DNA of 64,000 nucleotides from Tamlana sp. Lineage in GTDB: Bacteria; Bacteroidota; Bacteroidia; Flavobacteriales; Flavobacteriaceae. Below the pieces are notes generated by a model that had not been told where the DNA came from, did no database searches, and was given only the letters and a program-made list of their open reading frames with translations. This document shows positions 42,664 through 46,002 of this stretch, piece after piece. Where the stretch lies: NCBI GenBank assembly GCA_049451635.1, contig JBMTVT010000001.1, positions 9,644 to 73,643 of the forward strand, read 5' to 3'. Numbering within the stretch: position 1 is the first letter of the stretch; the number at the start of each line of letters is the position of its first letter. Both the position numbers and the translations under genes were made by a program.

Positions 42664-45600
42664 TTATTTATTTCGCATCACCTTTACATTCATCTCTTCC
42701 ACTTTTTTGTCAGATAACATGGAAGGTGCGCCAAACAATAAATCGTCACTGGTGCCTGTTTTTGGAAATGCCATAACCTCACGAATAGAAGCTTTTTTTT
42801 CTAAAATCATCATCAGCCTATCAACTCCCCAAGCAATACCACCGTGCGGTGGTGCGCCGTAATGGAACGCTTTATACATGGTACCTACACTTTTCATCAT
42901 CTCTTCTTTGTTGTAGCCCATATTTCTGTAAGTAGCTTCTAAAATTTCAGGTTTGTGCGCCCGTACCGAACCGCCACCAATTTCGTAACCATTCAAAATC
43001 AAATCGTATTGTTGCGCGATAATGGTACCTATTTCAGCATCTTTACCGTTCATGTGTTTTTCAATATCATACACTGCAGGCATTGAGAAGGGGTTATGGG
43101 TAAATGTCCAACGGCCGTCATCAGTTTTTTCAAACATCGGGAAATCTATTACCCAAGCAGGACGTAATTCTTTCGGGTTTATTAAACGCAACATACTGCC
43201 CAATTCCTGTCTAACTGCATCCAATGCTTTATTGGCAGTAGCATAGTCGGCAGCTGAAAAGAAAACAATATCACCAACTTGTGCATTGGTGGTTTTAATG
43301 ATTCCAGCAGCAATATCTTCACCTAAAAATTTAATAATGGGCGACTGCAAATTGTTTTCATTTACAATAATATATGCTAAACCACCCAAACCATGCTGTT
43401 GTGCAATGGCCGTTAATTTTTCAATTTGCCCTTTAGATAAGCGCTTTTTACCTTGTTCTTTAGCCGATACCTTGATGCATTTAACAATACCACCTTCTTC
43501 AATGGGTTTGCTAAACACTTGAAAGGTTGTTTCCTTAACAATATCTGTAATATCTTGAAGCTGTAAACCAAAGCGTAAATCGGGTCGGTCGCAACCGTAT
43601 TTATCCATGGCGTCTTGATAGGTAATCACTTCAAAAGGATGTAAAATCCATTTATTGCCATAAATTTTTGTAACCACTTCATTAAACATTTTGGTGTTTA
43701 AGTCCATAATTTGTTGCATGCTGGCGTATGCCATTTCTAAATCCAATTGCGTGAATTCAGGTTGTCGGTCACCTCGGGAGTCTTCATCCCTAAAACAACG
43801 TGCTATCTGGAAATATTTCTCGTAACCACTTACCATCAACATTTGTTTAAATTGCTGAGGTGCTTGTGGTAGTGTGTAAAAAGCACCGGCTTGTTTTCGA
43901 GATGGGACTATAAATTCGCGAGCGCCCTCATCGGTTCCAGCACTTAAAATGGGAGTTTCAATTTCAAGGAAATCTTCTTCATCTAAAATATCTCGAAGCA
44001 GTTTAATTACTTTATGGCGATTCACAATGGTTCTGCGAACATCATCATTTCTGTGGTCTAAAAACTTGTATTGAAAACGTGTGTTTTCATTGGTTTTTGT
44101 GGCTCGTTTTATTTCAAAAGGCAGTGTTCTAGATAGGTTTAAAATATCCAATTCATTAGCTTCCAATTCAATTTTCCCAGTTCGCAAGCTCGGGTTGTAA
44201 TCGTCTTCTTTACGTTGTAGAATGGTTCCAGAAACCGTAATAACCGATTCTGGTTTTAGTTTTACCAACTCATCAAGATTTGGAAATGATTCCCTGCTTA
44301 AACGCACTTGGAATTTCTCGGTACTGGAATCTCGTAAATCGATAAAAATGAGTTCCCCATGGTCGCGAACACTGGCAACCCAACCAGCAAAAGTTACCAC
44401 CTGAGAAATACTATCATCTGAAATATCAGTAATCAAATGCGTGCGGTATTTATCTTTTATAATTAGTGGGATTTCAGGAAGTTTTTCTTCTTCTTTAGCT
44501 TCTGGCTTTTGGCTTTTGATTTTTGGCTTTTCATCACTTACAATTTCCGACTTCTGTCTTTCCACATCTCCAGCCAGCGAAGCTAAAATACCCTCTCGAA
44601 TGACTTTTCCTGAAGCGCCTTTACCAATAATGGCAATTACTTTTCCAACTAAGATACCCGCCTTTCCTTGATTACCAGCTTTAATATCGTTTGCAATAGC
44701 TTCATTTTCAGTAATTACTTTGCTTATGGCATCATATATTTTGTCTTCGGAAATCGTGTGCGCTTCAAAATACTTATTATAATCAAAATGTCTGTCTTTT
44801 AAATAATTTGTGATAGCATTTTGTACTAAAACCGACGTGATTTTCTCTTCTTTAAAAAGCTGAAAAATTTCAATTAAATGCTCTATACGGTGAATATCGC
44901 CATAGTCTTCTGTACTAATATTGTTGACTAATGTTTTTGTAACAAACGACGGGTCTTTAAGCACATCGTTTATTTGCATAAATGTTTTGGAGCGTAGTGC
45001 GTCTGCCGTAAAAAACTTAGCATCTTGAGGTAACACACCACCTTTAATTATTATGGACTCTACGGCAAAAGGTAATGCGCTTATATCAACGTCAATTGAT
45101 TCTACAACATCTTTAATGCAAACAAAAGGTAAATCGGGTTCAGATATAAAACGGTAATCGGCTTCATATTCCTTTTTGCGCATGGTTTTGGTTTGCTTCA
45201 AATCGGCATCCCATAGGACGGTGGTTTGGTCTGGTCTAAACTCCTTGTGTTCCAGGTAGTAGTTGAGTTGTTTTTCTACTTCTTCCTTTAGGGCATCTAC
45301 CATGAACTTAAACGAGTTTAAGTTTTTTATTTCAGTACGTGGGTTTAAATTGTAACTGTGTTTTTTACGAAGTGATACCGAAACATCCGATTTAAACTCA
45401 CCCTTTTCAAGATTGGCTTCAGAAATTTTTAAATTTTGAACAATACGCTGAATGTATTGCGCATAAGTTGACGCATCTTCAATATGACGAATGCAAGGTG
45501 TGGTAACAATCTCAATAAGAGGTACGCCTGCTTTATTAAAATCTACCAACGACACTTGTTTTTCATGTATTAATTTAGCAGCATCTTCTTCAATATGAAC

Positions 45601-46002
45601 TTGCGACAAATTAACGGTAAACTGAGACCCATCATTTCTAAAACAAGACACTTGCCCATCAGGAATTATGGGGTTGTGAAACTGAGTAATTTGTATATTT
45701 TTTGGGTTATCGGGGTATTCATAATGTTTTCTGTCCCAAGAAATAACCTCATTTTCAAAAGTAGATTTTACAGCTTTACCAAAATAAATAGCTTTCTTAA
45801 TAACTTCTTTATTTATTGCCGGGAGCACACCCATTTGTCCAGTACAAACCGAACAAATATTTTGATTTGGGATATCAACTTCTTCATTGGGGCAAGAACA
45901 AAATAATTTGGTCTTTGTGTTTAACCGAACATGCGTTTCCAGCCCGATTACCAATTCTAACTCGTGTGCTTTTAATGCAGCATCTAATTCTTTCAATTCC
46001 AT
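42664..46002 (-). CDS. gatB-aspS: Fusion protein: Asp-tRNA(Asn)/Glu-tRNA(Gln) amidotransferase subunit B (aa 1-~478), K/E-rich linker, then bacterial-type aspartyl-tRNA synthetase (aa ~518-1112)
   Basis: Uninterrupted 1112-aa ORF. GatB motifs: [63 protein letters not shown]. AspRS motifs: [29 protein letters not shown], GAD-type insertion, [14 protein letters not shown]. Confidence 0.88.
   Translation of the reverse strand: [1112 protein letters not shown]

Follow-up and report, generated by a model that had tools for sequence, protein, structure and literature searches.

The window analyzed here, a stretch of 64,000 nt from Tamlana sp. (contig JBMTVT010000001.1), contains on its minus strand a gene in which the coding sequence of GatB, a subunit of the GatCAB amidotransferase, is joined in frame to that of aspartyl-tRNA synthetase (AspRS). 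The gatB::aspS fusion and its parts are:

42664..46002, minus strand: gatB::aspS fusion open reading frame (ORF), 1112 aa, with an ATG start, uninterrupted in the ORF listing
44569..46002, minus strand: GatB portion, residues 1–478, with cradle, helical, and YqeY-like tail domains
44449..44568, minus strand: linker, residues 479–518, of low complexity and rich in E, K, T, Q, and S
42664..44448, minus strand: AspRS portion, residues 519–1112 and the stop codon, with the OB anticodon-binding domain, class II core motifs 1–3, and a GAD insertion

The original prediction, made from the sequence alone, described this gene as one uninterrupted minus-strand GatB–AspRS ORF, and the ORF listing, Pfam, and NCBIfam agree with it. 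All peptide strings that it quoted were found within the 1112-aa translation, and the five domains that it named (GatB_N, GatB_Yqey, tRNA_anti-codon, tRNA-synt_2, and GAD) are present in a single chain. In the Pfam comparison GatB_N matched residues 17–298 with 306 bits, covering profile positions 1–273 of 277, and GatB_Yqey matched residues 372–474 weakly (37 bits, with a cutoff of 27). The OB domain (tRNA_anti-codon) was placed at residues 536–620, tRNA-synt_2 at residues 638–1082 with 356 bits, and GAD at residues 830–927. Among NCBIfam families, the AspRS part was recognized by aspS_bact TIGR00459 (641 bits, cutoff 374, residues 520–1110) and by the bacterial AspRS family NF001750 (708 bits, cutoff 443), and the GatB part by gatB TIGR00133 (343 bits, cutoff 315, residues 14–457) and NF004012 (392 bits, cutoff 338). 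A 1112-codon ORF cannot have arisen by chance in DNA of about 36% GC. The protein is a complete GatB followed by a disordered linker of about 40 residues and a complete bacterial-type AspRS.

The AlphaFold2 model of the fusion, which was used for domain and linker confidence alone, had a moderate mean predicted local distance difference test score (pLDDT) of 66.7. The GatB domains scored mostly 80–90 and the OB domain about 80, while linker residues 479–518 scored about 28–30 and had no secondary structure, which agrees with the linker boundaries proposed earlier (about 478–517). A variable linker core, delimited more narrowly than residues 479–518 and comprising 32 aa in the window protein, was compared among 199 fusions. 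It was 28–40 aa long (median 32), rich in E, K, T, Q, and S, and represented by 135 distinct sequences. The length of the linker is constrained and its sequence free, as expected of a flexible tether. The general geometry of tRNA places the elbow about 60–70 Å from the anticodon, and we infer that some 30–40 disordered residues can bridge this distance, from the elbow at the GatB tail to the anticodon at the OB domain.

To survey the occurrence of the fusion, a junction probe consisting of the YqeY tail, the linker, and the OB domain was scanned against one genome per species. At least 494 loci in these species-representative genomes encode the junction region, and the locus-level counts given here rest on the best 80 of them. 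The junction was fully covered in all 80, which come from about 17 Flavobacteriaceae genera, and in 76 of them the whole fusion was aligned as one tblastn high-scoring segment pair, from residue 20 or earlier to residue 1090 or later; the complete chromosomes CP138989, CP151839, and CP104270 are among the fusion-bearing genomes. At the protein level, a search of 5.8 billion clusters gave more than 120 clusters of 1110–1115 aa with 86–91% identity and the identical five domains, many of them on Mb-scale contigs of named isolates, and the in-frame junction was found in more than 200 clusters from isolates and metagenomes together. With the divergent representative P0121 as the seed of a search, the fusion was further found in Polaribacter, Flavicella, Urechidicola, Wenyingzhuangia, and Saprospiraceae, in Jiulongibacter/Marinilongibacter (Cytophagales), and in one Marinilabiliaceae metagenome-assembled genome (MAG). 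Hence, the same fusion, which the original prediction had suggested looking for in related Flavobacteriia, occurs in many Flavobacteriaceae genera and beyond. One Flavobacteriaceae-type fusion (P0504), 76–82% identical to the window protein and located on a contig of 5,308,776 bp, carries the gammaproteobacterial label "Paraglaciecola sp. L3A3", which probably reflects mislabeling or a mixture in the assembly (compare P0507 from Algibacter sp. L3A6).

Among 1.84 billion representatives at 50% identity only three full-length fusions were present, with 58%, 42%, and 37% identity. The last of them comes from Aminipila, a relative of Clostridium. In Aminipila sp. (GCA_032004305.1; L003, 8226–13273) a fusion of 1090 aa is part of a gatC-gatA-gatB::aspS operon, which adjoins glutamine and glutamate synthase genes. 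The GatB half of the Aminipila protein is fully canonical, whereas all Bacteroidota fusions share a divergent GatB half, and the Clostridial fusion is therefore probably an independent event. The 42%-identical fusion belongs to the metagenomic P0272/P0122 lineage (L002, 403–13351). Its Yqey and OB domains are weak, gatA and gatC are missing from its vicinity, and ahead of it lie genes for an AsnRS/AspRS-like protein (463 aa), CysRS, radical-SAM and ATP-grasp enzymes, and several proteins of unknown type. This lineage possibly puts the fusion to a different use.

The fusion already has names in the databases. In dozens of genera the NCBI product name is [quoted passage not shown], the UniProt label is "Multifunctional fusion protein", and the IMG label is "aspartyl-tRNA synthetase". 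No paper on a GatB–AspRS fusion was found in the full-text literature searched. The fusion gene is thus real and widely conserved, its existence is recorded in annotation, and a characterization was not found in the literature searched. The earlier claim of novelty holds as regards a describing paper in that literature, but it was overstated in view of the dedicated NCBI product name and the UniProt flag, and because annotation pipelines have already recorded the fusion its novelty is lower than first estimated.

The fusion closes an operon of the order gatC-gatA-gatB::aspS. The other features of this transcription unit are:

47405..47674, minus strand: gatC-like gene, 89 aa, probably encoding a divergent GatC, assigned by weak GatC matches, profile, and position
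46002..47402, minus strand: gatA, glutaminase subunit, 466 aa, assigned by Pfam Amidase and triad motifs; its stop codon overlaps the start codon of the fusion (ATGA)
42583..42613, minus strand: putative intrinsic terminator from the terminator scan, about 50 nt past the fusion stop codon

The GatA protein matched Pfam Amidase with 360 bits and contains the motifs GIKD, GGSSGGSA, and DTGGSVRQPA, which correspond to the Ser-cisSer-Lys amidase triad. Its best PDB matches were all GatA proteins, the first of them GatA of the Pseudomonas aeruginosa transamidosome (4wj3_A, 310 bits). Matches of the 89-aa protein to GatC were weak (16.7–20.6 bits; Pfam GatC E = 0.0086; TIGR00135 20.6 bits). A profile built from five homologs had Aquifex GatC (3h0l_C) as its top PDB match, with E = 3.3e-4. 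The gatC-like gene was 74–91% identical in 76 of the 80 loci and always directly upstream of gatA, and both its position and its conservation are consistent with GatC. The 89-aa protein is hence probably a GatC that has diverged strongly. The gatA gene precedes the fusion in 77 of the 80 loci, and the order gatC-gatA-fusion was also seen in Aestuariibaculum, Saprospiraceae (L088), Polaribacter (L171), Marinilongibacter (L172), and Aminipila. The putative closing terminator is a palindromic hairpin, AAAAATCCTGACA-ATTTT-TGTCAGGATTTTTT, found by the scan and by reading of the coding strand. A sigma-70 promoter scan, with 21 matches versus an expected 22.8, is uninformative, and the promoter consensus of Bacteroidota is another one. 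The window neighborhood consists of core housekeeping genes, including fusA, secY, eno, gltA, argS, ffh, gyrB, and secDF. Elsewhere in the window (26868–30155, minus strand) two adjacent ORFs of 544 and 546 aa had no NCBIfam match at E ≤ 1e-10. In Polaribacter sargassicola (L171, 9612–15330) a trpE-G-D-C-F-B cluster lies directly downstream of the fusion operon, in an amino-acid-biosynthesis neighborhood.

Between gyrB and gatC, at 47686–47797 of the minus strand, lies an element new in this analysis, a candidate Asn-codon leader attenuator upstream of gatC. The original prediction covered the fusion gene and overlooked this element together with the upstream gatA and gatC. Its parts are:

47750..47797, minus strand: leader mini-ORF MVNNNNNNNFNNPNF with its stop codon, 15 codons of which 10 are Asn, forming segment 1 (read and translated)
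47732..47745, minus strand: segment 2, GGAAGG plus TTATTGTT (folding, pairing across 42 sequences)
47695..47720, minus strand: segments 3:4, terminator hairpin of 11 bp, 6 of them GC, followed by a U-run (terminator scan, folding)

Segment 2 (GGAAGG-TTATTGTT) has two alternative partners, the Asn-codon run AACAATAA (1:2 helix) and, via GGAAGG, the CCTTCC in the 5′ arm of the terminator (2:3 helix), and the 3:4 terminator ends about 20 nt ahead of the gatC ATG. The minimum free energy fold shows the 1:2 helix, and a 2:3 helix of 8 bp forms when segments 1 and 4 are left out of the folding. The whole leader folds with −29.6 kcal/mol (z = −4.1, none of 200 shuffles as good), and the terminator alone with −17.6 kcal/mol (z = −5.8). 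Of 78 Flavobacteriaceae loci, 59 have a mini-ORF of the form M-x-N(5-11)-F-N-N-P-x-x-stop upstream of gatC, and Polaribacter sargassicola (L171, about 4205–4320) has one as well; across the family these leader peptides have 7–13 Asn codons and no Gln codons. In 42 distinct sequences 96.8% of the terminator cells were paired in register versus 41–64% when slid, and 100% of the antiterminator cells versus at most 75% when slid, with 27–75% paired in the slid-partner controls overall. The innermost terminator pair is GC in 14 and AU in 11 of the 42 sequences. In Rfam, Phe_leader (RF01859) matched at 47690–47791 with 40.9 bits and E = 2.4e-4, below its gathering threshold of 55, and an Asn leader peptide was found neither in the literature searched nor above threshold in Rfam. 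The element would act in the manner of such a leader, but it belongs to no curated family. A mini-ORF of regulatory codons and mutually exclusive terminator and antiterminator helices are thus present upstream of gatC, and the element looks like a leader-peptide attenuator sensing Asn-tRNA(Asn).

Upstream of the operon in the 19 leader-less Flavobacteriaceae loci (e.g., L061, L019, L054, L072) there is a conserved block with a TAnnTTTG-type Bacteroidota promoter motif. No T-box or other Rfam element was found upstream of the Aminipila, Saprospiraceae, or standalone operons. In Clostridium acetobutylicum, aspS/gatCAB are said to be T-box-regulated instead.

The AspRS half has as its best PDB match the nondiscriminating AspRS of P. 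aeruginosa (4wj3_M, 451 bits), and its motifs 1–3 align without gaps to 4wj3_M and 1efw. Position 31 of the P. aeruginosa enzyme is reportedly His in AspRSs that accept tRNA(Asn) and Leu in discriminating ones, and position 83 is usually Gly. The fusions have His at the position equivalent to H31 in 215 of 216 cases ("SVRDHGE" in the window protein versus "RRRDHGG" in P. aeruginosa and "RRRDLGG" in Thermus AspRS1). Canonical Bacteroidota AspRSs have K, L, F, or M there and never His, as judged from 11 Bacteroidota, 113 Saprospiraceae, and 64 scorable metagenomic sequences, including Elizabethkingia (6WOM) and Blattabacterium. This pattern suggests that the AspRS half is a nondiscriminating-type enzyme. 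The fused AspRS is 36–39% identical to canonical Bacteroidota AspRS and forms a subgroup of its own, shared with a few standalone enzymes (P0124, P0126, P0127); P0127, like the standalone GatB P0203, is a true standalone gene.

Other AspRS fusions were noted among the related proteins. P0131, considered as a fourth lineage of the fusion, was rejected as a HisRS–AspRS fusion; in P0131 and P0280 (Bacillota MAGs, 1029–1040 aa, on contigs of up to 3.5 Mb) a complete class II HisRS, anticodon domain included, is followed by a complete bacterial AspRS. P0141 and P0303 (744 aa, metagenomes) consist of a bacterial AspRS and a C-terminal YbaK-like editing domain (Pfam tRNA_edit, 102 bits).

These data suggest a module of four parts, the Asn-sensing leader, gatC, gatA, and gatB::aspS, which we consider likely to be a covalently tethered Asn-transamidosome that is induced by Asn starvation and serves tRNA-dependent asparagine synthesis. 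In this scheme the AspRS half would put Asp on tRNA(Asn), and the tethered GatB half with GatA and GatC would phosphorylate and amidate Asp-tRNA(Asn) to Asn-tRNA(Asn), with ammonia supplied by GatA. An AspRS dimer would result in a particle with two permanently attached GatCAB units, and because of this arrangement complex formation would be independent of concentration and of tRNA as a glue. The rationale for such tethering comes from Asn-transamidosomes of the bacterial, GAD-containing type, which have been reported as dynamic and unstable (PMC3367201). If Asn-tRNA(Asn) runs short, the ribosome would stall at the Asn codons of the leader, the antiterminator would form, and the operon would be transcribed; when it is plentiful, for example when AsnRS is provided with free Asn, transcription would stop ahead of gatC. 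The operon would thus serve tRNA-dependent Asn biosynthesis, where other Flavobacteriaceae make Asn by AsnB and charge it by AsnRS. The term "covalent transamidosome", introduced in the original prediction, is the best description of the architecture in view of the operon, the Asn leader, the nondiscriminating-type His, and the survey pattern described next, while channeling by the tether and shielding from EF-Tu are conjectural parts of that proposal.

The physiological side of this proposal was examined using the annotation-based survey of 547 genera by Alperstein et al. (2014) (PMC4206432, Table S1), of which the Flavobacteriales rows were used: Aequorivita, Capnocytophaga, Cellulophaga, Croceibacter, Flavobacterium, Flavobacteriaceae bacterium 3519-10, Gramella, Krokinobacter, Lacinutrix, Maribacter, Nonlabens, Psychroflexus, Riemerella, Robiginitalea, Zobellia, and Zunongwangia. 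In these rows 15 Flavobacteriales genomes have no gatCAB, one aspS, one asnS, one glnS, and at least one asnA or asnB, and Polaribacter sp. MED152 alone has one gatCAB and one aspS with neither asnA nor asnB. All Flavobacteriaceae rows used have asnS, glnS, and a tRNA(Asn) with U1-A72. The species with the fusion include Polaribacter, and together with the survey pattern this indicates that in Flavobacteriaceae the module appears where asparagine synthetase is missing. Because most Flavobacteriaceae relatives in the rows used have no GatCAB, the module would be biosynthetic rather than the default decoding route; this scarcity of GatCAB among the relatives surveyed there had been overlooked in the earlier picture of the locus.

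A different explanation is that the fusion is a device for co-expression and stoichiometry, in which the AspRS half is the single housekeeping AspRS for tRNA(Asp) as well as tRNA(Asn), and nothing is gained by channeling. Most bacteria with a GatCAB route to Asn possess one AspRS. In the survey rows used Polaribacter sp. MED152 has one aspS, no Bacteroidota are found in the part of the survey listing genomes with two or more AspRSs (PMC4206432), and the IMG name "aspartyl-tRNA synthetase" means that the fusion would be counted as aspS. The AspRS half also shows housekeeping-grade conservation. It is 84–93% identical within the family, 74–76% to Cytophagales, and 67% to Saprospiraceae, while canonical AspRS over like spans is 75–88% identical within the family and 62–67% to Saprospiraceae, the AspRS half being at least as conserved as canonical AspRS and its divergence roughly tracking taxonomy. 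However, an essential AspRS placed behind an attenuator repressed by Asn would be risky and is implausible, and the 36–39% identity to canonical Bacteroidota AspRS would mean that the canonical gene was displaced repeatedly. The survey, moreover, is based on annotation, and the constrained length of the linker suggests that geometry matters. We regard the housekeeping explanation as unlikely, though it deserves to be weighed.

Whether the fused AspRS is the sole AspRS or co-exists with a second, canonical aspS appears at present to be about evenly balanced. No other AspRS-type aminoacyl-tRNA synthetase (aaRS) was found within the 64-kb window, and no second AspRS within 6 kb on either side of the fusion in the 80 genomes. 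A metagenome scan with the canonical-specific probe TQIDCEM gave 66 full-length canonical AspRSs, with Arenibacter and "Flavobacteriaceae bacterium" as the only names, and in a tblastn search of a plasmid collection no Flavobacteriaceae replicon matched. Two candidates were discarded in this connection: P0195, as a family representative of the canonical type, belongs to Saprospiraceae, and the Saprospiraceae fusion P0439 and the canonical AspRS P0340, considered as a co-resident pair, come from different samples.

The GatB half bears on another alternative, namely that it is catalytically degenerate and merely an appended tRNA-binding or regulatory domain, comparable to the YqeY-like extension of Deinococcus GlnRS. 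Of the 79 positions invariant in six canonical GatBs, the fusion keeps 59, including the metal-binding and catalytic motifs GLExH, HxEED, PLxEIV, and DRK. The motif LRxDxNxS, invariant in five solved GatBs, is replaced by FKSDVSVS (window 45360–45400, minus strand, residues about 201–212). Across the family the changes, in Staphylococcus aureus numbering, are N194S and S93T in all members, R190K in most, and YFYPD to YEYPD; Asn194 is replaced by Ser in all 212 fusions in which the motif was found, in P0122, and in the standalone GatB P0203. The changed positions, among them N194S, R190K, and S93T, the weak Pfam Yqey score of 37 bits, and the P0122 lineage with no gatA or gatC nearby could be taken as signs of degeneration. 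Against this, the metal-binding and catalytic motifs are retained and the TIGR00133 cutoff is passed, the changes are fixed and strongly conserved (187 identical motif copies), and each of the Bacteroidota operons examined has an intact gatA and a conserved gatC transcribed together with the fusion. A degenerate GatB half is hence improbable, and one possibility is that the substitutions reflect a specialization for Asp-tRNA(Asn).

A role of the module in making Gln-tRNA(Gln), or in a nontranslational use of aminoacyl-tRNA such as natural-product or envelope modification, has very little probability. GatCAB is generally dual-specific, and the P0272 relative adjoins genes for radical-SAM and ATP-grasp enzymes and further aaRS-like genes. 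However, a Gln role is unlikely because GlnRS is present (glnS in the Flavobacteriaceae rows used, PMC4206432), the leader peptide consists of Asn codons and has no Gln codons, the partner of GatB is AspRS and not GluRS, and the context in the window is one of core housekeeping genes. An assembly or sequencing artefact, in which gatB and aspS are separate neighbors and the stop codon or frameshift between them went missing, is ruled out by cross-species conservation to the point of a negligible chance, because, even though versions of 584–639 aa of a related protein are also present at NCBI in some Clostridial clusters, 76 of 80 independently sequenced species, complete chromosomes among them, share the junction in frame, as do over 200 fusion protein clusters from isolates and metagenomes, and the variable linker core is kept at 28–40 aa.

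Several observations weigh against the proposal of an Asn-induced, tethered transamidosome. The charging of tRNA(Asn), the amidation, and the channeling by the fusion are each inferred from sequence. The fusion has Asp at the position equivalent to G83 of the P. aeruginosa AspRS ("RKEDDYNP" versus "RPEGARNP"), the rule for positions 31 and 83 being the one reportedly given by Bernard and colleagues in 2006. With 20 of the 79 canonical GatB invariants changed, including N194S beside the active site, the chemistry of this subunit could be altered. The best NCBIfam match of GatA (TIGR00132, 417 bits) lies below its cutoff of 481, and GatC is recognizable weakly, at the profile level. The leader is absent from 19 of the 78 Flavobacteriaceae loci and from the Saprospiraceae, Cytophagales, and Aminipila operons examined. 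Covariation in the leader is sparse because the element is so conserved, and its support comes from conservation and thermodynamics. Finally, neither the window nor any of 60 related loci contains a tRNA gene, that for tRNA(Asn) with its U1-A72 pair included.

A more far-reaching version of the proposal, a self-contained module induced by starvation, combines tRNA as the sole route to Asn in these Flavobacteriaceae, an undescribed Asn attenuator, a permanently tethered second AspRS dedicated to this task beside the canonical discriminating one, a divergent GatB specialized for Asp-tRNA(Asn), and hard-wiring of the two enzymes that arose at least three times. The three independent hard-wirings in it would be the Bacteroidota GatB–AspRS, the Clostridial GatB–AspRS, and an AspRS–GatC fusion. 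We put this combination forward tentatively, as having less than an even chance of being right in all its parts. Recurrent independent fusions suggest selection for tethering both steps.

The channeling of Asp-tRNA(Asn) within bacterial transamidosomes is still debated because complexes of the bacterial type are transient. A natural single-chain GatB–AspRS, present in hundreds of culturable marine species, would offer a stable particle for cryo-electron microscopy and kinetics, with a built-in comparison of fused and split halves, and with the candidate Asn leader attenuator, reporters would allow a direct test of the physiological role. If the proposed attenuation is true, Asn would join the amino acids sensed by leader peptides, as judged from the literature searched, in a phylum little studied for such control. 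The pattern of GatCAB module or AsnB also matters for predicting Asn auxotrophy in the abundant marine Flavobacteriaceae.

The candidate leader shares with the trp, his, phe, thr, and leu leaders a short ORF of codons for the regulated amino acid, the 1:2, 2:3, and 3:4 helices, and the U-run. It differs from them in that the codons are Asn, the regulated genes form an aaRS/amidotransferase operon, and the host belongs to Bacteroidota. In its physiology, the proposed system resembles Deinococcus/Thermus (AspRS2 and GatCAB), Bdellovibrio, and Legionella, in which, in the part of the survey used, GatCAB is kept despite AsnRS and GlnRS, AsnA and AsnB are missing, and tRNA(Asn) has U1-A72 (PMC4206432); Polaribacter sp. 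MED152 falls there in the same tRNA-dependent Asn class as Bdellovibrio and Legionella. Those systems use separate proteins and the second AspRS of Deinococcus–Thermus is archaeal-type, whereas in the window a bacterial-type AspRS is fused to GatB.

A close counterpart is the Asn-transamidosome of Thermus thermophilus, Helicobacter pylori, and P. aeruginosa (PDB 3KFU, 4WJ3), which consists of the same enzymes and carries out the same two-step reaction as proposed here, and among solved structures the AspRS half and GatA match the chains of the P. aeruginosa complex best. The known complexes are noncovalent, and the bacterial-type ones reportedly dynamic (PMC3367201), while in the window GatB and AspRS form a single polypeptide; its GatB half is in addition a member of a divergent subfamily (N194S and other changes), unlike that of the known Asn-transamidosomes. 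A natural covalent link between AspRS and GatCAB has been recorded before in the AspRS–GatC fusion, the curated NCBIfam family NF009460/PRK12820 ([quoted passage not shown]), also in an operon with the other two subunits. Its members include P0206 and the protein of Acetoanaerobium noterae (L173, 3914–9008), where aspS::gatC (700 aa) is followed by gatA and gatB; this A. noterae replicon (NZ_CP154629.1), 2.6 Mb long with 4 annotated features, is filed as a "plasmid" in PLSDB. The window fusion matches NF009460 in its AspRS part only and is not a member (467 bits, cutoff 1379, profile positions 25–618 of 723), and the arrangement is different, with GatC at the C terminus of AspRS in that family and GatB at the N terminus of AspRS in the window. 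A nondiscriminating aaRS tethered to a GatCAB subunit is likewise present in the glutamine transamidosome of Thermotoga maritima (PDB 3AL0, chain C), as an engineered GatC-linker-GluRS. That fusion was man-made for crystallization, belongs to the Gln pathway, and has GatC as the partner, unlike the natural GatB–AspRS described here.

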